The notes under the pieces: generated by a model
The model's input: only the letters and a program-made list of their open reading frames with translations
Told to the model about the DNA's origin: nothing
Database searches by the model: none
Program-made: the position numbers and the translations under genes
From: an uncultured virus (IMG/VR IMGVR_UViG_3300034374_009246)
Lineage: Duplodnaviria > Heunggongvirae > Uroviricota > Caudoviricetes
Virus record (IMG/VR): IMGVR_UViG_3300034374_009246
Strand: one strand, 5' to 3'
Length of the DNA stretch: 20,000 nt
In this document: positions 4,808 through 20,000 of the stretch, in pieces
How positions within the stretch are numbered: position 1 is the stretch's first letter
Layout of the letters: the number at the start of each line of letters is the position of its first letter

Positions 4808-5344
4808 ATGGGATTATCAACAAAGCTTGATGAAAAAAAGAAAGATATATTAAGCAAAAAACAGAAAATAGAATTATTAAAAGACAAACATTTAGATTTG
4901 TTTAAACAAGAAAAAGTTAAACAACCTAAATTTATACCTAAAATGTGTTATATGCACAAAGGTGAACTGGTTGTTTCATTTTATCCAAGTGAAATAACTA
5001 AAGGTCAAGACATCTATACTGAATTTGTAAGTAGAGATTATGAACCTGAAGATCCAGAAAGAAGATTATGGAAATGGATTTATCATGATGCGTATGATAC
5101 AGAGTATGAAAAATCTGATCCTCATCCTACTTCTGGTGATAGACGTTATCTAATACCTAAAGATGAATTAATTGAAGTTACAAAAGTAGCTGAGCAAGGT
5201 GAATTAATATTTGAACCATTACCAGATGCTGATGCAGATGTTCCATATAGTTCAATGACACTTAGAGATTATGCAGCTATACAATGGAAACTTCCTGTCA
5301 GTCATAAAGCATGGTTAAATAACTTAATAAATAATTTAAAATGA
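4808..5344 (+). CDS. Hypothetical protein with C-terminal MTLRDYAA motif
   Basis: 178 aa ORF coupled to the next gene; MTLRDY-x-A is a recurrent small phage motif. Confidence 0.75.
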   Translation: MGLSTKLDEKKKDILSKKQKIELLKDKHLDLFKQEKVKQPKFIPKMCYMHKGELVVSFYPSEITKGQDIYTEFVSRDYEPEDPERRLWKWIYHDAYDTEYEKSDPHPTSGDRRYLIPKDELIEVTKVAEQGELIFEPLPDADADVPYSSMTLRDYAAIQWKLPVSHKAWLNNLINNLK

Positions 5345-6084
5345 CAAAAATTGTATTACCACAGAAGAAAATAAAAGCTTCTGCACAAAGCCCTAAAAAT
5401 CTTATCATTTTTTCTAAACCTAAAGTAGGTAAAACATCTCTCTTAGCTGATTTAGAAAACTGTCTTATATTAGATTTTGAAGACGGTTCTGATTATGTAG
5501 ATGCTTTAAAACTAAAAGTAGATACTGTTGAAGATTTAAAACTTATTGGTGCAGAAATAAAAGAACAAGGCCATCCTTATAAATATATAGCTGTAGATAC
5601 AGTAACTGCATTAGAAGAAAAATGTATTCCTGTTGCTGAAAAATTATATTCTAAATCTTCAATGGGAAAGAATTGGTTTAAAACAGGCAAGCAAACTTAT
5701 GGTAACATCTTAAACTTACCTAATGGTGCAGGTTATGTATGGCTAAGACAAGCTATAACAAGTGTTCTAGAATACATAAAGACTCTTGCTCCAAGAATTA
5801 TAATTGTAGGTCACGTAAAAGATATAATGCTAGAGAAAGCTGGTGCTGAGTTTACAAGTTCAGATCTAGATTTAACAGGTAAAATTAAAAGAATAATTTC
5901 TTCACAGTCAGATGCTATTGGTTATCTATATAGAAAAGGTAATCAGAACATTCTTAACTTCAAAACAAGTGATGATGTTGCTTGTGGAGCTAGACCAGAT
6001 CACTTAAGAAATCAACAAATTGTTATTTCAGAAATGACTGAAGAAGGAGTTAAAACAAATTGGGATAAAGTATACATAGATTAA
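5341..6084 (+). CDS. AAA_24 / Sak4-like recombination ATPase
   Basis: Walker A SKPKVGKTS, LILDFEDG, Walker B IAVDTVT, IIVGHVK, DAIGY; directly upstream of an SSB-like gene. Confidence 0.85.
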   Translation: MTKIVLPQKKIKASAQSPKNLIIFSKPKVGKTSLLADLENCLILDFEDGSDYVDALKLKVDTVEDLKLIGAEIKEQGHPYKYIAVDTVTALEEKCIPVAEKLYSKSSMGKNWFKTGKQTYGNILNLPNGAGYVWLRQAITSVLEYIKTLAPRIIIVGHVKDIMLEKAGAEFTSSDLDLTGKIKRIISSQSDAIGYLYRKGNQNILNFKTSDDVACGARPDHLRNQQIVISEMTEEGVKTNWDKVYID

Positions 6085-7880: not shown

Positions 7881-8303
7881 ATGAGCTGGATTTTAAACCA
7901 TCAAACATTTACAGAAGAAATGATTCCTGAAAACGCTGTAGGTTTTATATATGAAATGACTGCGGTAATTGAAGGTAAACTTGTAAAGTATATTGGCAAA
8001 AAGAATTTCTATTCAATTAGAAAAAAGAAATTTGGAAAGAAAGCTATTGCAGCTATGACAGATAAAAGAGCTAAGAAATATACTATGGTTAAAAAAACAG
8101 ACTATGAAAAGTATTATAGTAGTAATGAAGTATTAAAGAAAGCACATAAAGAAGGTATATCTATAGTTAGAACTATACTTAAGATATGCTACTCTAAAAC
8201 AGAGCTTACTTATCAAGAAACAAAGTTTCAATTTGTAAATGAAGTTCTTGAAAAAGATGAGTATTTAAATAAAAATATTTTAGGAAGATTTTATAAAACT
8301 TAA
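7881..8303 (+). CDS. GIY-YIG nuclease-like protein (T4 endonuclease II-like)
   Basis: GFIY ... KYIGKK, YYSS, conserved E and C-terminal N-x-N-I. Confidence 0.75.
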   Translation: MSWILNHQTFTEEMIPENAVGFIYEMTAVIEGKLVKYIGKKNFYSIRKKKFGKKAIAAMTDKRAKKYTMVKKTDYEKYYSSNEVLKKAHKEGISIVRTILKICYSKTELTYQETKFQFVNEVLEKDEYLNKNILGRFYKT

Positions 8304-9064: not shown

Positions 9065-9497
9065 TATGGAAAACAAAATGCTAGAAAAACAAGAGTTTGA
9101 TTCTATACTGTCTATGATATCTTCAAGAGATCATGAGAACTGGACTGTTGGTTTAACCATAATGGAAAATTTAGAACTAACAGATTATAATGTGATAAAC
9201 ATATTACTTGTACTTAAACAAGGTATTGTAGCTGATAAACATATAAAGACAAACTATAAAACTTTTTATGATAATCTAACTAATGCAGTAAAAGATTACT
9301 TAGATGATGATTTTAGACCTGGTATATCACACCTTACATATAAACAATTATTTAAAATAGTTAATGAAGGCAAGTTTGATTATGAAGCAAAACAATCTTT
9401 AATAGATTCTTTTTCAATGGATTTTAAGAATAAACTTATTGATACCGGATATACTTTTGTTGAAGATGTAATAATAAAAATTAAAGATGAGAGATAA
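9057..9497 (+). CDS. Hypothetical alpha-helical protein
   Basis: 146 aa, overlaps both neighbours; N-terminal M..S.D..N motif. Confidence 0.75.
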   Translation: MTNMENKMLEKQEFDSILSMISSRDHENWTVGLTIMENLELTDYNVINILLVLKQGIVADKHIKTNYKTFYDNLTNAVKDYLDDDFRPGISHLTYKQLFKIVNEGKFDYEAKQSLIDSFSMDFKNKLIDTGYTFVEDVIIKIKDER

Positions 9498-10689
9498 TAT
9501 AGAAAGTTTAGCTAAAGCATCTAAAGAACTTATGTTAAGAGAAGCCTATTACGGGCTTCTTCTTATGTCACTAAATAAAATTTGGTCCCAAAAGAAAGTG
9601 CCTACAGCAGGTGTTTGCGTTAAAGGTATTAACTATGAGTTAGCTATTAATCCTGATTTTTGGCAAACACTTTCTCCAATACAAAAAGTAGGCATATTAA
9701 AACATGAGTTATTACACATTGCTTTCTTTCATTTAACAGACTATAATGATCTTCAAGATAAAAAGCTATTAAATATAGCAATGGATATTGAGATTAATCA
9801 ATACATTGAAAGATCATGGTTGCCTGAAGATGGTTGTTTTATAGAAACTTATATTAACCAAGGGTATAAGTTAGATTACAAAGCTGGTACAAGATATTAT
9901 TACAAAGAGCTTAGTAAGATAAAAAATGAAGACAGTGAGTTAGGTAATGCTTTAAAAGATTTATGTGAAGGAAATGATAACAGTGTTACTTTAAGTGACG
10001 GAACTGAAATTACAACTCCTGAACATGAATGGGATAGTGAAGAAATAAGTGAAGCAACTCAGAGATTGATAAAGTCACAAACAGCACATGTCTTAGATCA
10101 AGTAGCTGATCAGGTAAAAAAGATGCGTGGTACAGTACCTGGTGAGATTGCAAGTATAATTGAAAAGCTTAAACAAATAGATCCGCCAAAGTTTGATTGG
10201 AAAGGATATATGAGAAGGTTTATTGGTAAATCTACAAGAACTTATACTAAAGTTTCTAGAAGAAAGTTCAACAAAAGATTACCAGACTTTCCTGGTTTAA
10301 AATTTAAAAAGCACAAGCATGTACTAGCAGCTATAGATACATCAGCTTCTGTTAATACAAAAGAACTCAAAGAATTTCTTAATGAATTACATCATATAAA
10401 GAAGACAGGTTCTGATGTTACAATTATACAATGTGATACAGCAATATCTAACATAAGTAAATTTAATCCAAGAAAAGATTTAGAAATACACGGTAGAGGT
10501 GGGACAGACTTTCAACCTGTTATAGATTATTACAATGAAAAACTCAATGAGTTTAGTTGTCTATTCTATTTTACAGATGGAGAATGTTCAGCACCTGAAA
10601 ACGCAAAAGGAAATATTTTATGGGTACTTTCTTCACAAGGTAATGCTTGGGATGAATTGCCAGGAACAACTATTAAATTAGAATTATGA
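9487..10689 (+). CDS. Zincin-like metallopeptidase plus vWA domain protein (DUF2201-like)
   Basis: PTAGV, HELLH (HEXXH), NIAMDIEIN; MIDAS DTSAS, CDT, GRGGTDF, FTDG. Confidence 0.92.
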   Translation: MRDNIESLAKASKELMLREAYYGLLLMSLNKIWSQKKVPTAGVCVKGINYELAINPDFWQTLSPIQKVGILKHELLHIAFFHLTDYNDLQDKKLLNIAMDIEINQYIERSWLPEDGCFIETYINQGYKLDYKAGTRYYYKELSKIKNEDSELGNALKDLCEGNDNSVTLSDGTEITTPEHEWDSEEISEATQRLIKSQTAHVLDQVADQVKKMRGTVPGEIASIIEKLKQIDPPKFDWKGYMRRFIGKSTRTYTKVSRRKFNKRLPDFPGLKFKKHKHVLAAIDTSASVNTKELKEFLNELHHIKKTGSDVTIIQCDTAISNISKFNPRKDLEIHGRGGTDFQPVIDYYNEKLNEFSCLFYFTDGECSAPENAKGNILWVLSSQGNAWDELPGTTIKLEL

Positions 10690-13102: not shown

Positions 13103-14134
13103 ATGATTAATACAAATACAGTCAATACAGTTGACAAAAACATGTTAGAGACAGAATTCTTCAACAAAGAATTTAATTTTAGTTATAGCAGCTTAAATAA
13201 GCTGCTTGAATCTCCTCAAAGATTTTATAAAGAATATGTTCTTAAAGATAAAGAGGAGAAAATTGCTAAGTATTTACTAGAGGGAATTGTTATACATTAC
13301 TTAGTGCTTGATGGTTTAGATTTTGACAGCAAATTTATTGTAGCTCCGCAATCTTTGCCAAGCGAAAGTTCTATAGAAATTATTAACAATGTCTTTAAAG
13401 AATATGAATTAGATCCTGATCCTTCTAAATCATTAAGAGATTATGAATCTGTCATTCTAAAACAACTTGAAGAAAAGAATTTACATCAAAGACTAAAAGA
13501 AGATTCTAAAAGAATTGAAAAAATAGCAGATGTAAAAGGTATAGATTACTTTGAGTTTCTTAAGATAAAAGAAAACAGAACTATAATAGATGCTGCTATA
13601 TTAGATAGATGTTCAAGAAGAGCTGAGATCATAAAAGCAGATGAAAAAACAAGAAATCTTATAGGTTTAGATTTACAACATGATGGTACAAAAATTGGAG
13701 TCTATAATGAATTAGAATTGTCAATGAGTTTACCAAATGATAAATATTCTTTTGGTTTAAAAGGTATAATTGATAATCTTGTTGTTGATGTAGTAAATCA
13801 AGTAGTTACAATAAATGATTTTAAAACAACCAGCAAGTCTATACAAAAGTTTGAAGAGTCTGTAGATTATTGGAACTATTGGTTACAAGCCAGCATTTAC
13901 AAAAAACTAGTAAAAGACTTTTTATCTGATGTAGTTAATGCAGGTTGGATTATAAATTTTAATTTTATAGTATTTGATAAGTATGATCAACTATATTCTT
14001 TTAATGTATCAGATGATACTTTTAAAAAGTGGGATGCTATGATGCTTAATACTTTTGAAGATGCAGAGTATCATTTTCAAAGTAAAGAGTTTAAGCTTCC
14101 TAAAGCATTTGCTTTATCTAATGTTAAACTATAA
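13103..14134 (+). CDS. PD-(D/E)XK exonuclease (RecE/ExoVIII-like)
   Basis: FSYSSL, G..IH, E, KGIIDNL, DFKTT, Q..IY motifs. Confidence 0.85.
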   Translation: MINTNTVNTVDKNMLETEFFNKEFNFSYSSLNKLLESPQRFYKEYVLKDKEEKIAKYLLEGIVIHYLVLDGLDFDSKFIVAPQSLPSESSIEIINNVFKEYELDPDPSKSLRDYESVILKQLEEKNLHQRLKEDSKRIEKIADVKGIDYFEFLKIKENRTIIDAAILDRCSRRAEIIKADEKTRNLIGLDLQHDGTKIGVYNELELSMSLPNDKYSFGLKGIIDNLVVDVVNQVVTINDFKTTSKSIQKFEESVDYWNYWLQASIYKKLVKDFLSDVVNAGWIINFNFIVFDKYDQLYSFNVSDDTFKKWDAMMLNTFEDAEYHFQSKEFKLPKAFALSNVKL

Positions 14135-15260: not shown

Positions 15261-17246
15261 ATGAATCACTATGTCATGGATTATGAAACATTATCTAATT
15301 GTTTCATAGGAGTATTTGAACATTATAAAACTGAAGAGATAAAAATATTTTGTTGTTCTAAATTTCATAATGATATAAAAGATTTATATGTTTTTCTTGA
15401 TAAGAATAAAAAGAATAAAGAATGGCATATATCTTTTAATGGTTTAGCTTTTGATGCTCAGATAACAAACTTTCTTCTTAAAAACAAATCACGGCTTATT
15501 AACAAGTCTGGTGTTGAAGTTGCAGAAGCTGTATATATAAAAGCACAAGATTGTATTAATAGACAAGACGCAAAAGAATTTCAGGAATGGAGTGAGCGTC
15601 AGCTTTTAATTAAACAGATTGATGTATTCAAATTAAATCATTGGGATAATCCAGCTAAGAGAAGTTCATTAAAATGGATTCAATGTTCTATGGATTGGCT
15701 CAATGTTCAAGACATGCCGCTTCATCACACTACTGATATAGATAGCAAAGAACTAATAAATAAAATTATTGAGTATTGTATTAATGATGTGAAGAGTACT
15801 AAAGCTATTATGAATCATAGCAAAGACTTGATAACATTAAGAGGCAGTTTGACTAATGAATATAACATTCCTTTATACAGTGCATCTGAACCTAGAATTG
15901 CTAAAGAATTATTTTTACATTTCTTAGAAGAAAGAACTGGTATAAGCAAGTATGAAATTAAAAATAGCAGAACATATAGAAATCAAATTGTAGTAAGTGA
16001 AATACTTTTACCTTATTTAAAGTTTGATGTTTCTGCATTTCAACAGTTACTATTTAAGTTTCAAACTTTAGTGCTAGATGCTAATAATTTAAAAGGCAGT
16101 TTTAAAGAACATGTTAAGTATAGAGGTGTTGATGTAGACTTTGGATTGGGTGGTGTTCATGGTGTAAAGAAAGGGATATATGTACCAGATGATAACATGA
16201 CTATTATGTCTTCAGATGTTACAAGTTTCTATCCTAATCTAGCTATTAGAAATAAATTTGCACCAGCTCATTTACCAAAACAAAAGTTTTGTGAATTGTA
16301 TGAATGGATGTTTGATGAAAGAAAAAAGATTCCTAAATCAAATCCTAAGAATTATGTATACAAGATTATGCTTAATTCCACATATGGTTTAAGTAATGAT
16401 GCTGCATCTTTTTTGTATGATCCTCAGTTTACAATGCAGATAACTATTAATGGTCAGTTATCATTGATGATGTTATTTACTATGTTGTCTGAAAGAATAT
16501 TAGGTGCTATACCTATTATGACTAATACAGATGGTGTAGAAATTATGATTCCTAAAAAAGCTATTCCACAATATATGGAGATATGCAAAGAATGGGAAGA
16601 GATAACTAATCTGCAGTTAGAACATGACCAGTATCAAAAGCTTATTGTTCCTGATGTAAATAATTACATTGGTATATTTACATTTAATGAAGTTGATAGA
16701 GATACATTTATCAAAACGCAATCAAAGAATCCAGAGTATTTATTTAAAAAAGAAGAGGGTAAGTTTTACTATGCAAAAACAAAATGCAAAGGTAGATTTG
16801 AACTGAAGAAAGCATTACATAAAAACAAAAGCTTTACTATTATTCAAAAAGCTATATACAATTATTTTGTACACGGGCTTGATCCTAAAAAATATATCAA
16901 AACAAATAAAAACATTTTTGATTTTTGTGGTCAAACTAAAGTAACAAGAAATTGGAAGTTCAAATATAGTTATGTAAAAGATGGAACTGTAAGCACAGAA
17001 AACTTACAAAAAACATTAAGGTTTTATATCTCAAATAAAGGCGGAAAAATTATAAAAAACAATGTCAATGATGACAGGGATATAAATGTTGTATCAGGCA
17101 AATGGTTACAAAAGATATTTAATAAGTATCAAGATGTATCATGGTCTGATTATGATATTGATTATGGATTTTATTTAGATAAAATAAACAAAGAAATAAA
17201 ATCTATGAGTCCTGAATTATTTACTAATCAAATAAGTTTATTTTAA
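15261..17246 (+). CDS. Family B DNA polymerase with 3'-5' exonuclease
   Basis: ExoI DYE, ExoII FNGLAFD, ExoIII YCINDV, motif A DVTSFYP, motif B KIMLNSTYG, motif C NTDG. Start moved to ATG 15261 because the track's TTG at 15210 lies inside the terminator. Confidence 0.95.
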   Translation: MNHYVMDYETLSNCFIGVFEHYKTEEIKIFCCSKFHNDIKDLYVFLDKNKKNKEWHISFNGLAFDAQITNFLLKNKSRLINKSGVEVAEAVYIKAQDCINRQDAKEFQEWSERQLLIKQIDVFKLNHWDNPAKRSSLKWIQCSMDWLNVQDMPLHHTTDIDSKELINKIIEYCINDVKSTKAIMNHSKDLITLRGSLTNEYNIPLYSASEPRIAKELFLHFLEERTGISKYEIKNSRTYRNQIVVSEILLPYLKFDVSAFQQLLFKFQTLVLDANNLKGSFKEHVKYRGVDVDFGLGGVHGVKKGIYVPDDNMTIMSSDVTSFYPNLAIRNKFAPAHLPKQKFCELYEWMFDERKKIPKSNPKNYVYKIMLNSTYGLSNDAASFLYDPQFTMQITINGQLSLMMLFTMLSERILGAIPIMTNTDGVEIMIPKKAIPQYMEICKEWEEITNLQLEHDQYQKLIVPDVNNYIGIFTFNEVDRDTFIKTQSKNPEYLFKKEEGKFYYAKTKCKGRFELKKALHKNKSFTIIQKAIYNYFVHGLDPKKYIKTNKNIFDFCGQTKVTRNWKFKYSYVKDGTVSTENLQKTLRFYISNKGGKIIKNNVNDDRDINVVSGKWLQKIFNKYQDVSWSDYDIDYGFYLDKINKEIKSMSPELFTNQISLF

Positions 17247-17256
17247 AATTAAAGTT

Positions 17257-18780
17257 ATGCCTAAAAGTACAAAGGTAGCTGTGGATAAGAGTGTTTTAAT
17301 AAACGCTACTTTACCACCAGCAACACAAACCTATACGGTAATTTCTCATGGTTATATTATTGATACAACATTAAAAAGTCTAGCTGCGGCAGGCTTTGTT
17401 GTATTAGATGAAAAATACAGATGTAATCAAGATGCTAGAGTAGCTCAAGGTATTTATAGAATTGAGTATCTGAATGATCCTGATTTATCTATGATGTTTA
17501 CATGGACAAACTCTTATGATAAATCAACTAGATTTAGATGTGCAGTTGGTGCGCATGTAAATGCAAGTGGCGCATCTATGGTAAAGAAAACATCTGCTTG
17601 GCAAAGAAAGCATACAGGTAATGCATTACAAGAAGCTACAGATCAGATAGATAATATTGTTGCTGATGCTCAAGATTATTTTCAAGAACTTCTTGATATT
17701 AAAAACAAGATGAAGCAAAAGTATTTATCTGAAGAAGCTTACATTATTGTAACAGATCCTACGTCTACTACAGTGTATCCTGGTTTATTTGAGAAACTAG
17801 TCAATAAAAAGTTTGGACATCTCATGGGTGATTTACATTTTACAAATAAGTTAATCACAAGTGAGCAATGTACTACTATTATGAAAGAGTATGAATCTCA
17901 AAGATATCATTATGGTACAGGTAAGAATTCATTGTGGACAGCTTATAATCATATATTAATAGGATTGAAATCAACACATCCAAAACTTTGGTTAGATATA
18001 CAAACCTCAGTTCTATTATATTTTATGGATGAGTTTGATTTAGTAAACTTTGACATAGAAGAAGATGATGATGAAGTAATAGATAGTGTAGATGAGGATA
18101 ACACAAATATTATTGAAGATGCTGATGATGATAACACATCTCCTATAGATAATGATTTTGAAGAAGAAGTTACAGAAGAACATGAAGAAGATCTTCAATT
18201 TATTCCTGCAGATAATGTTGTAGAAGAAACAGAAGAAGTTAAATCAGAAGTTAATTCTATAATGGTAACTGCAGAAGACTACGGTGATTTAGCAATAGGT
18301 AGTCTAGTAGAAGTAGAAGATATTATATATCAAGTAGCTGAAATACAAACCTATGAAGGAGAAGATTATCTTGTGTTAAATGAATTTACAGTAGGAGAAG
18401 AAATTACACCAGATCCTACCCCTGTTTTACCAGATCCTCCAGTATCAAATGTAGAATCTACAGTTAATCAAGATGAGTCAAATCAATTAAACTTTGACTT
18501 ATATCAAGATGATACTGAAGATGAAACAGAAGAAGAATCATCTGAATTAAATTCTGTTAATGAATTTCTAATAGAAAGCACAGAAGAAACCATTGAAGAA
18601 AATCAAGATTTAGATCCTGCTATTCAAAAAGCAATTAAGGATGAGCTTGAAAGTTTATATGGTTATTCTAATGTTGATTTCACATTTAAAAGAGATGATG
18701 AACATTATATAATAACATTATCAACAGGGGAATCTCTTGTACTAAGTAGTTCATACATAGATACAATAGTTTATTCTTAA
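17257..18780 (+). CDS. DUF932-like domain protein with long acidic C-terminal extension
   Basis: TY..ISH, NSYDKS, RKHTG and SLW.AYN motifs in the first ~250 aa; D/E-rich remainder. Confidence 0.7.
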   Translation: MPKSTKVAVDKSVLINATLPPATQTYTVISHGYIIDTTLKSLAAAGFVVLDEKYRCNQDARVAQGIYRIEYLNDPDLSMMFTWTNSYDKSTRFRCAVGAHVNASGASMVKKTSAWQRKHTGNALQEATDQIDNIVADAQDYFQELLDIKNKMKQKYLSEEAYIIVTDPTSTTVYPGLFEKLVNKKFGHLMGDLHFTNKLITSEQCTTIMKEYESQRYHYGTGKNSLWTAYNHILIGLKSTHPKLWLDIQTSVLLYFMDEFDLVNFDIEEDDDEVIDSVDEDNTNIIEDADDDNTSPIDNDFEEEVTEEHEEDLQFIPADNVVEETEEVKSEVNSIMVTAEDYGDLAIGSLVEVEDIIYQVAEIQTYEGEDYLVLNEFTVGEEITPDPTPVLPDPPVSNVESTVNQDESNQLNFDLYQDDTEDETEEESSELNSVNEFLIESTEETIEENQDLDPAIQKAIKDELESLYGYSNVDFTFKRDDEHYIITLSTGESLVLSSSYIDTIVYS

Positions 18781-18792
18781 TAGTTAAATCAA

Positions 18793-18825
18793 AAAGCAGA
18801 GTCTTAACAACTCTGCTTTCTTTTT
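18793..18825 (+). terminator. Rho-independent terminator
   Basis: AAAGCAGAGT-CTTAACA-ACTCTGCTTT followed by CTTTTT. Confidence 0.85.
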
Positions 18826-18875
18826 AGCTATCCCTAAGCCTAGATAAATAAATATCATAACTAAAATAAAAAAAA

Positions 18876-19100
18876 ATGAATAAGAAAGAAACAATTGATG
18901 GATATACTTTTGAGTATAATTCAGAAGACAATTTTTATGAGTGCAGAGGTACTATCTGCTATGATGATGAACATGATGAGATGCCCGAACCTGGATTGTG
19001 GAGAGCTGCTCATAAACTTGCTACAAAATTAAAGAATCAAGGTATTGATGCAGAAGTAGAACATTCTGAGAAAGGTTGGGTAGAAGTATTAATGAATTAA
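18876..19100 (+). CDS. Small acidic hypothetical protein
   Basis: 74 aa with A-rich leader; its TAA stop lies within repeat copy 1. Confidence 0.75.
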   Translation: MNKKETIDGYTFEYNSEDNFYECRGTICYDDEHDEMPEPGLWRAAHKLATKLKNQGIDAEVEHSEKGWVEVLMN

Positions 19101-19118
19101 ACCAAAACAAAAATGAGT
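19096..19118 (+). repeat. Cassette-delimiting direct repeat, copy 1
   Basis: ATTAAACCAAAACAAAAATGAGT, 22/23 identical to copy 2. Confidence 0.9.
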
Positions 19119-19227
19119 AGATGGTAGGGTTTGACTTGACAGACATTGGAGAAAGGGGTGGTGCGACTCAAGGTGAAAAAAGCCTGAACCCGAAACAGTT
19201 CAAATCTGTTACCTACCAGATACTCAT
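19113..19227 (+). ncRNA. tRNA-like structured RNA (acceptor stem and T-arm, no canonical D or anticodon arm)
   Basis: T-arm AACAG-TTCAAAT-CTGTT (19194-19210); TGGTAGG (19122-19128) pairs with CCTACCA (19212-19218); ATGAGTA (19113-19119) pairs with TACTCAT (19221-19227); locally GC-rich; ATG frame stops after 4 codons. Confidence 0.65.
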
Positions 19228-19248
19228 TAAACCAAAACAAAGATGAGT
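19226..19248 (+). repeat. Cassette-delimiting direct repeat, copy 2
   Basis: ATTAAACCAAAACAAAGATGAGT, contains the ATG at 19243. Confidence 0.9.
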
Positions 19249-19440
19249 GAAGAGATAAAAATAACTATAGAAGAGTTAGAGAAGGAAATTAAACAGGCTT
19301 TTATTCATGGTCAAGGTAATAAAGAAATGATGGAAGCAGGGTTGGAAAGAGATGAAACTGAAGATTATGTTAACAGTAGAATGAGAAGTTTATTAAAACA
19401 AAACAAAGATGAAAGAAGAAATAGCAAGTATGTTGATTGA
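19243..19440 (+). CDS. Small hypothetical protein (cassette)
   Basis: Starts at the ATG of repeat 2 and reads through repeat 3 as LKQNKDE. Confidence 0.7.
   Translation: MSEEIKITIEELEKEIKQAFIHGQGNKEMMEAGLERDETEDYVNSRMRSLLKQNKDERRNSKYVD
19392..19412 (+). repeat. Cassette-delimiting direct repeat, copy 3
   Basis: ATTAAAACAAAACAAAGATGA, contains the ATG at 19409. Confidence 0.85.
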
Positions 19441-19615
19441 TATTTTTAACAGACTAAATATAGACACTCCAAATAATTTTGATAGCATATTAAATTTTGT
19501 TATTGAAGATGTTGAAGAAACTGCTGATAAAAAAAATTGGCATGATGGAGATGTAGCAATAGCATTTAGAAGATGGATAGAAAACCAAAACAAAGATGAT
19601 CAGCAAAAAAAATAA
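19409..19615 (+). CDS. Small acidic hypothetical protein (cassette)
   Basis: Starts at the ATG of repeat 3 and reads through repeat 4 as NQNKDD. Confidence 0.7.
   Translation: MKEEIASMLIDIFNRLNIDTPNNFDSILNFVIEDVEETADKKNWHDGDVAIAFRRWIENQNKDDQQKK
19582..19599 (+). repeat. Cassette-delimiting direct repeat, copy 4
   Basis: AAACCAAAACAAAGATGA, contains the ATG at 19596. Confidence 0.85.
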
Positions 19616-19766
19616 TTTTGTAAAAGTAAAATTGAGGTTGGAAGAAATAGAGGACATAGTTGGTGTCTATGAGTTTATTAAATTTAAAAATGGTTCTTCT
19701 TCTCAAGAGGGTAAATTAGCCACTAAAATAATTAATAGACTAAAAAAACATTTAGATGAGAATTGA
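19596..19766 (+). CDS. Small hypothetical protein, 56 aa (MISKKNNFVKVKLRLEEIEDIVGVYEF...KHLDEN), absent from the ORF track
   Basis: Manual translation from the ATG of repeat 4 to TGA at 19764-19766; fills the gap and overlaps the next gene. Confidence 0.65.
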   Translation: MISKKNNFVKVKLRLEEIEDIVGVYEFIKFKNGSSSQEGKLATKIINRLKKHLDEN

Positions 19767-20000
19767 AATATCAACAAGGGTAGTTTTTCTGATAGGCAAA
19801 TATGCCATCAAAATACCTATAGATCGCAGAGGGTATCTGCAGGGTAAAAATGAAAAAGCAGTATGGGAATCCGGTAAGTGCAGAAAACTATTGGCTCCTT
19901 TAGTCTGGTCCAGGTTTGGCATAGTGATCCAAAAAAGATGCACAGAGATTAACTATTTTGTAGAAAATTATGTATTTGAAATCAAAAATACATTTCCTCA
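19756..20000 (+). CDS. Putative small protein-kinase-like fold protein, truncated by the window end
   Basis: Manual translation MRIEISTRVVFLIGKYAIKIPIDRRGYLQGKNEKAVW...LLAPL...; STRVVF, AIK and helix-C-like NE resemble a kinase N-lobe; frame open to the window end. Confidence 0.6.
   Translation, partial: MRIEISTRVVFLIGKYAIKIPIDRRGYLQGKNEKAVWESGKCRKLLAPLVWSRFGIVIQKRCTEINYFVENYVFEIKNTFP

Follow-up and report, generated by a model that had tools for sequence, protein, structure and literature searches.

A short stop/start joint between small genes, written in the same letters by phage lineages that share almost no genes, as a probable point of cassette exchange

The 20,000-nucleotide (nt) stretch of DNA analysed here, the window, belongs to an uncultured caudoviricete virus (IMG/VR record IMGVR_UViG_3300034374_009246) and is part of a complete phage genome (109,874 bp, with direct terminal repeats). 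Near its right end lies an array of small genes separated by a short repeat, the motif, which carries the start codon of the gene that follows. We read this repeat as a compact, portable stop/start joint that probably also provides short homology for the exchange of gene cassettes. On a polycistronic mRNA, the joint would end any upstream open reading frame (ORF) in any frame; directly after the stops it would present a fixed AUG preceded by an unstructured leader made up solely of A and C, in which positions -3, -6, -12 and -13 are A, an arrangement expected to suit the ribosomes of a Bacteroidia-type host that does without Shine-Dalgarno (SD) pairing. Judging from these stop and SD-free start features, its main selected job would be the expression of small accessory genes, probably early. 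As the same 18–26 letters stand between many unrelated genes, both inside a single genome and in unrelated phages with similar hosts, they provide perfect homology for recombination, and general or phage-encoded recombination at the joint could delete, insert, duplicate or swap whole genes with their frames kept, with no dedicated recombinase involved.

The pattern AAAMCAAAACAAARATG is found on the plus strand at 19099, 19229, 19395 and 19582, with ATGs at 19113, 19243, 19409 and 19596. These 4 occurrences compare with 0.21 expected, and none of 200 shuffles contained four or more, which bears out the positions and the spacings (130, 166 and 187 nt) given in an earlier reading of the sequence alone (the sequence-only reading). 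The repeat family is about 23–32 nt long, with ATTAAACCAAAACAAARATGAGT in copies 1 and 2. Copy 1 (19096..19118; ATTAAACCAAAACAAAAATGAGT) contains stops in three frames, TAA at -15, TGA at +1 and TAG at +5, and its ATG opens only four codons. Copy 2 (19226..19248; ATTAAACCAAAACAAAGATGAGT) has the full consensus, also with stops in three frames. Copy 3 (19392..19414; ATTAAAACAAAACAAAGATGAAA) has lost the +5 stop, and ORF65 therefore overlaps ORF68 by 32 nt, while copy 4 (19579..19601; AGAAAACCAAAACAAAGATGATC) lacks both the -15 and the +5 stops. The frames are as first described, in that the TAA of copy 1 ends ORF74, and ORF65 and ORF68 stay open across copies 3 and 4 (KQNKDE and NQNKDD). The proposal that every ATG starts a mini-gene stands for copies 2–4 and fails for copy 1, which opens only MSRW*. 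The units between copies had been called unrelated, and a search for mutual sequence similarity among them indeed gave no cross matches.

Across the complete genome, the gene-strand sites are these four alone, even when up to three mismatches are allowed, and the opposite strand holds one site with 3 mismatches. The motif thus precedes no core gene, in agreement with the earlier remark that it was not seen before core replication genes. The last unit, containing ORF56, has no clear closing copy. At the ORF56/ORF118 junction (19739-19762; CTAAAAAAACATTTAGATGAGAAT), the consensus is matched at 15 of 24 positions, AGATGAG included, and this may be a decayed fifth copy. As the three spacings in the window are all 1 modulo 3, a programmed frameshift at the motif was considered and set aside; each ORF has its own start. 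Among 53 motif spacings in six genomes, 24, 17 and 12 are 1, 2 and 0 modulo 3, which is a mild bias only.

A consensus derived from 247 unique copies reads TTAAACCAAAACAAAG-ATG-AGTAAA, and the junction written out is T-TAA-ACCAAAACAAAG-ATG-A-GTAA. It includes a TAA at -15 in the frame of the ATG, a TGA within ATGA and, for the remaining frame, a TAA, TAG or TGA at +5. Counting unique copies with at most one mismatch, the stop at -15 is present in 146 of 181, ATGA in 177 of 181 and the stop at +5 in 99 of 181, with all three in 85 of 181. Among 170 copies, an ORF arriving from upstream terminates within the motif or shortly behind it, whichever its frame (74, 37 and 33 cases by frame); the other 26 have no ORF upstream. 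Where the +5 stop is needed it is only slightly commoner (50/81) than elsewhere (37/73), and it is therefore a property of the word rather than of single sites. Upstream of the ATG the letters are A and C only, save for a G or A adjoining the ATG, so this part cannot pair with itself. The motif contains no G-rich SD core, and it abuts and includes the ATG. In a recurrent variant, an extra AAG stands ahead of the ATG and the A at -3 is kept.

The genes of the array, all on the plus strand, are ORF74 (18876..19100, with its stop, TAA, within copy 1) and the cassettes of ORF65 (19243..19440), ORF68 (19409..19615) and ORF56 (19596..19766), led by copies 2, 3 and 4, respectively. All four are real genes under purifying selection, as measured by the ratio of non-synonymous to synonymous substitution rates (dN/dS) against homologues in other contigs. 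Using the prefixes L and G as our labels for comparison contigs and genomes (G000 being the window's own genome), ORF74 has homologues in L141, L121 and L039/G004/G005 at 77–86% amino acid (aa) identity, with dN/dS of 0.12–0.29. ORF65 has a homologue in L140 at 85% nt identity (dN/dS 0.10) with motif copies on either side. The ORF68 cassette recurs in L003, L082 and L107 at 85–94% nt identity, with homology limited to 19389-19599 (dN/dS 0.32–0.75), and ORF56 has a homologue in L141 that is led by the motif with the extra AAG (dN/dS 0.12). The predicted structure of ORF74 is a confident small alpha/beta model (pLDDT 84) with no match in the PDB at an E-value of 0.001 or better. None of the four genes has a PHROG or Pfam match, and a search of the ESM Atlas with ORF74 and ORF68 returned no usable match.

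If the repeat is a point of exchange, orthologous loci should differ in content and order with breakpoints in the repeat, as the sequence-only reading had anticipated, and in most cases they do. The close relatives compared are contigs 92–100% identical in the 507-aa gene that precedes the array. Two of them, L137 and L138, have the same gene order as the window. In L001, identity to the window is 100% for the 7,247 nt that lead to copy 2; an ORF68-like start follows, and ORF65 is absent. The order in L140 is X1, motif, X3, motif, ORF65, motif, ORF118; that in L141 is X1, decayed motif, X2, motif with AAG, ORF56, ORF118, decayed motif, ORF74, shortened motif, ORF277. Relative to the window, L140 and L141 have ORF74 placed elsewhere and ORF87 gone; their junctions are full, AAG-extended or decayed motif copies, and the two diverge from one another right after a motif copy. 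Between close relatives, cassettes differ by synonymous divergence (dS) of 0.6–1.1, with the backbone 94–96% identical and the adjoining motif unchanged, indicating that the cassettes have a different history from that of the backbone.

The same cassettes also occur elsewhere, flanked by the repeat and with homology ending there. Among 51 homologous motif-led pairs we left out 11 with no nt match of at least 100 nt, one with a short flank and two from the same contig; in 33 of the 37 judged pairs homology starts at the motif, in 20 of these 33 it also ends at the next copy, and the other 4 of the 37 continue into related flanks. Even cassette pairs that are 95–97% identical show homology that fails to extend 30 nt beyond. 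In G002, one cassette is present in two arrays 290 kb apart, at 95% identity over 340 nt and with unrelated flanks. Cassettes also cross lineages, being shared by G002 with G004 and by G000 with G004/G005. Contigs assembled from four public freshwater runs contain alternative joins, for example of ORF74 to ORF277 and of ORF74 to an ORF68 copy, as well as many loose ends exactly at motif copies. Repeat-to-repeat joints in Logan (copy 1 to 2 and copy 2 to 3), whose sides measure 18–28 nt, were not counted.

The motif recurs in viral contigs and is confined there to arrays of small genes. In a scan of viral contigs, at least 135 stretches hold the exact motif and, by our count, at least 30 contigs have two or more exact copies, always on one strand. 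Five larger contigs (61–380 kb) contain 12, 22, 12, 13 and 15 copies at no more than one mismatch. Of these 74 copies, 72 are on one strand, in one to three local co-oriented arrays, and a reversed-pattern control in the same contigs gave 0–1 matches. The ORFs behind the motif have a median length of only 64 aa (n = 203), and 217 unique ones of at least 25 aa form 178 clusters, 148 of them singletons. A Pfam match was obtained for 9 of 125 cluster representatives, among them thymidylate synthase twice, an SPL-like radical-SAM protein, LemA, Lcl_C and three domains of unknown function (DUFs). Prokaryote genomes (596 Gb searched) are almost free of such arrays: the exact 18-mer was found in 94 stretches, nearly all of them single and without a gene context, and two copies occur at only 5 loci (4 small contigs of metagenome-assembled genomes). 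Cultured phages queried with a 35-nt motif sequence gave chance-level single matches only.

We compared all ORFs of at least 50 aa between the window's genome and five carriers of the motif fetched whole. The six divide into three lineages: G000 (110 kb); G004 and G005 (about 125 kb, with 89–90 ORFs in common); and the jumbo contigs G001, G002 and G003 (210–380 kb, with 89–158 ORFs in common). G000 shares 0–5 ORFs with each of the other five, seven in total. The shared ORFs include the ORF74 cassette (77% aa identity), a lysin, a PD-(D/E)XK nuclease, two DUF-bearing proteins and one without a Pfam match, as found by a Pfam scan that took in six of the seven and left out ORF87. The DNA polymerase of the window has no match in the five other contigs and is at most 34% identical to that of any cultured phage; positions 17000-20000 gave no DNA match among cultured relatives. 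All six genomes have a G+C content of 30–33%. The same letters are thus used by phage lineages that share almost no genes.

Several observations suggest what the letters may be for. SD-like sites before long ORFs are rare in the six genomes (2/84, 1/67, 2/126, 9/198, 4/210 and 5/346, or 1–5%), and A is enriched before these ORFs at -11 to -14 and at -3, as reported for Bacteroidia. In F. johnsoniae, ribosome profiling and reporter mutants showed a gain in translation from A at 0, -3, -6, -12 and -13 and a loss from structure (PMC6847099). The motif has an A at each of these positions. Its predicted unpaired probability from -18 to +5 is 0.65 at 69 motif-led starts, as compared to 0.55 at 300 other starts and 0.50 at random sites (p = 2.6e-8 for the difference, the motif-led copies not all being independent). 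The A-rich, Bacteroidota-style start site proposed in the sequence-only reading fits these data, and the motif fits well as a translation start for SD-independent, Bacteroidia-type ribosomes. A plain translation enhancer before many core genes had also been considered there; only 0–3 of 67–346 long ORFs per genome are preceded by the motif, which is not a genome-wide leader.

Because all of the measured Bacteroidia determinants are present and predicted structure is low, the motif might be a strong signal for translation start or coupling and nothing else, its letters kept by ribosome preference and the mosaic edges left by illegitimate recombination followed by selection. We consider this unlikely. 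Four A positions do not demand 18–26 identical letters and three fixed Cs in three unrelated lineages, and the long genes of the same genomes do without the motif. In pairs that are 95–97% identical, homology breaks off on either side only a few bases from the motif, and one cassette has been copied between two arrays within one genome.

A number of points do favor that explanation over a joint used for exchange, or otherwise weigh against the latter. One breakpoint between close relatives, at the end of the 507-aa gene (18780), has no motif, and 11 of the 33 pairs lack a recognisable motif at the right end. The pairs were chosen for a preceding motif, which biases the left boundary towards it, and the removal of broken genes by selection would in any case leave breakpoints at gene boundaries. 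The L001 contig ends 24 nt past the motif, and the comparative material is metagenome assembly throughout. No joints that would mark an excised circle, in which the sequence goes back on itself, were found in the contigs from the freshwater runs, which could not show rare forms. The A determinants do not account for the Cs fixed at -5, -10 and -11; behind these Cs there may be a sequence-specific reader, or simple hitch-hiking and conversion. Enhanced translation, co-transcription and early timing are each suggested by sequence features, as is the Bacteroidia-type host, and SD-poor hosts other than Bacteroidia exist.

A specific reader is at the center of a second alternative, in which a regulator or nuclease acting in trans would use the motif, on mRNA or DNA, as its operator and so define a co-regulated set of small genes. 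There are precedents in phage T4, where RegA and RegB act at early start sites. Letter-level conservation in excess of the need for A-richness, together with the restriction of the motif to a subset of genes in one orientation, is in keeping with such a role, and there is a parallel in SAS, a start-associated repeat of mycobacteriophages discussed below, for which the authors leave the binding factor open in the portion of the paper considered here (PMC3203893). Among the genes common to the lineages, with six of the seven ORFs that G000 shares scanned in Pfam, we see no shared phage trans factor, G000 having 0–5 ORFs in common with any other carrier; since the lineages share almost no ORFs, no phage-encoded reader of the motif is apparent. 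A host factor is possible as the reader. On balance we regard the operator as improbable.

It is more improbable still that the motif is a promoter for a host or phage RNA polymerase, comparable to the promoter part of the PeSL described below, that starts transcription at or near the ATG, so that each mini-gene would be a short-leader or leaderless transcript. Phage-specific promoters are about 20 nt long, asymmetric, co-oriented and placed right before genes, as are the motif copies. A promoter scan detected no promoter-like site and no sigma-70-type hexamers at any copy on the gene strand (8 sites in the region, 6.4 expected), and the motif lacks elements of the TTTG type, which are Bacteroidia promoter elements. 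Moreover, the same letters are present in three lineages that have no polymerase gene in common, and stops in three frames combined with a fixed ATGA make sense only for the translation of a polycistronic RNA.

We give almost no credence to site-specific recombination of cassettes at the repeat in the manner of an integron; the sequence-only reading had called the array integron-like, with no integrase in view. The arrays resemble such a system in being made up of small promoterless cassettes with a repeat wherever two of them meet, and in their varying content. However, the tyrosine recombinase family PF00589 was detected in none of five records, of which G000 and G002 are 100% complete (control, 14/14), and the A/C-only motif contains no inverted repeat and cannot fold like attC. 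An integron uses an integrase and a hairpin attC at the 3' end of the cassette, whereas these arrays have neither, and their repeat is a 5' start signal that carries the start codon. With no tyrosine recombinase and no attC-like hairpin, the integron is a loose analogy only.

For the joint as we read it, recombination could be carried out by enzymes encoded in the window. The Sak4-like single-strand DNA-annealing protein (5341..6084, plus strand; phrog_124, E = 1.1e-26) is a candidate for this function, and the exonuclease VIII-like protein (13103..14134, plus strand; phrog_412, E = 2.6e-17) is a candidate partner. An annealing protein and an exonuclease are the kinds of enzymes able to use short homology. 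The PHROG matches confirm these two gene calls of the sequence-only reading; its calls of a single-strand-binding protein (SSB) and a NinB-like gene were not confirmed, as the ORFs tested gave no PHROG match. Neither the Sak4-like nor the exonuclease ORF has a blastp match in the five other motif-bearing contigs compared whole.

The motif string itself was not found in the literature searched. The nearest described match is the PeSL of the T4-type phages RB49 and phi1, a repeated stop-to-start regulatory unit that drives modular shuffling (PMC2839356). PeSLs are, like the motif, short repeated regulatory units that bridge two genes, from the stop of the first to the start codon of the second; both are concentrated in plastic regions before ORFans, and indels and replacements in close relatives are bounded by the repeats. 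Exchange between PeSLs is by ordinary recombination between copies, as we propose for the motif. PeSLs differ in being built on a sigma-70 promoter, a terminator-like stem-loop and an SD sequence, all three of which are missing from the motif. The only stem-loop of our array is a separate unit between two copies (unit 1, below) and is not inside the motif. Unlike PeSL, the motif is 18–26 nt long, has stops in three frames and probably works at the level of translation; it is identical across unrelated lineages, while PeSLs are described within one phage pair. PeSL mini-circles have been demonstrated physically (PMC2839356), whereas the motif is known here from contigs alone. By analogy, then, the motif may be a counterpart of the PeSL that acts on translation.

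SAS, the repeat of cluster K mycobacteriophages, is similar in other respects (PMC3203893). SAS and the motif are both short, asymmetric repeats that keep one orientation and stand right where some, but not all, non-structural genes begin; both precede many gene families, show a strong preference for ATG and are absent (in the case of the motif, nearly absent) from host or prokaryote genomes, and for both a role in translation initiation is proposed and unproven. SAS is 13 bp long and GC-rich, with an SD core, and is located 3–7 bp before the start, whereas the motif is SD-free and includes the start codon and three stops. SAS is confined to one phage cluster and, in the sections consulted, is not described as a recombination breakpoint; the motif crosses lineages (PMC3203893). 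The Kozak-like start regions of Bacteroidia share with the motif the A at 0, -3, -6, -12 and -13, a low-structure leader and the lack of an SD sequence, in the part of the profiling study cited above (PMC6847099). These regions reflect a loose preference, while the motif is a fixed word that is nearly absent from bacterial genomes.

It is possible, if somewhat doubtful, that the joint serves as a common exchange standard for a gene pool shared by unrelated phages of an SD-blind host group. If so, short-homology recombination could insert any small gene with the joint into the array of any carrier, in any frame, where it would be expressed at once. The arrays would then do the work of an integron without an integrase, would be a natural example of the 'linker' model of phage mosaicism, and would draw attention to hundreds of ORFan families as likely host-takeover or anti-defence genes. 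Whether mosaic genomes arise by exchange at conserved linkers or by random joining followed by selection is a long-standing question; with one 18–26-nt word at the joints of about 180 unrelated small-gene families in unrelated phages, and with most of the observed breakpoints inside it, the linker model becomes open to direct test. For phages of SD-ignoring hosts, the motif would in addition be the first candidate for a sequence-defined strong start signal. In practice, it could be used as a flag for extracting accessory genes, probably early-expressed, from viromes. Conserved regulatory sequences have been used in this manner to find anti-defence genes in archaeal viruses, according to the part of that work consulted (PMC11065993).

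One unit of the array is different in kind. Unit 1, between copies 1 and 2 (19112..19228, plus strand), is a GC-richer, hairpin-closed element (42–44% G+C, about 27–31% around it) and is not a mini-gene, because the ATG of copy 1 opens just four codons. Its ends are 17-nt inverted arms, and the stem that they form buries this ATG. The RNA fold has a free energy of -38.6 kcal/mol (z = -3.97), and none of 200 shuffles was equally stable. Public contigs contain a natural variant with changes at 8 of 109 positions. By our mapping onto the fold, none of the seven listed changes is in the three outer stems, and six of the seven are non-synonymous in the alternative 41-codon frame of the unit (ORF41), for which reason ORF41 was rejected as a protein. 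Unit 1 is probably a structured, non-coding RNA spacer rather than a gene cassette; as a guess from the modeled fold, it is possibly a processing or stabilising hairpin.

The end of unit 1 contains a T-arm-like hairpin (AACAG-TTCAAAT-CTGTT) followed by an acceptor-like stem of 6–7 bp, which could be a degenerate tRNA-like processing signal. A tRNA proper was considered and rejected: a fold forced to hold the T-arm is 4.8 kcal/mol worse than the minimum-free-energy fold, and no tool made a call at normal thresholds. ARAGORN found nothing in unit 1 at default and relaxed settings and made one call only at a 70% threshold with an intron. Rfam gave no match for the whole window (E-values up to 1) or for 19060-19280 (E-values up to 10), and a search for relatives with a 25-nt core pattern recovered a near-identical contig only.

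Ahead of the array, a terminator-like hairpin with a T-run (18793..18819, plus strand) closes the replication module, which includes the DNA polymerase and the 507-aa gene. It is followed, upstream of ORF74, by a conserved box (18836..18858, plus strand; AAGCCTAGATAAATAAATATCAT). This box (CCTAGATAAA..TAAATAT..) stands after a C-rich stretch, downstream of terminators and ahead of differing genes. Similar copies are located about 750 nt upstream of the first base of the window and, in another gene context, at about 10575-10600 in L140. Based on these placements, the box may, with some uncertainty, be a phage promoter. An apparent array end is found in L086 at about 300-360, where a terminator hairpin and its T-run come immediately behind a motif copy.

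Downstream of ORF56, ORF118 begins at 19756 on the plus strand and extends past the window (19756..20000, on to 20112). It has no motif ahead of it here, and in L140 a full motif copy is directly upstream of it. Beyond the window lies ORF277 (20304-21137), which encodes an SPL-like radical-SAM protein, assigned to Pfam SPL through its L061 homologue (L061:536-1366); upstream of it stands the motif in L061, a shortened form of the motif in L141, and neither in this genome. Thymidylate synthase genes are motif-led in L063 (3039-4004), L052 (3174-4004) and G003 (at about 243217), and the cassette pool therefore includes ordinary metabolic genes. The window differs from the genome record at two bases, 19972 (G/A) and 19989 (T/C), both outside the features described here. 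Within the replication module, PHROG matches to homing or HNH endonuclease families are present at 7881-8303 and 9487-10689, and these endonuclease genes may be mobile.

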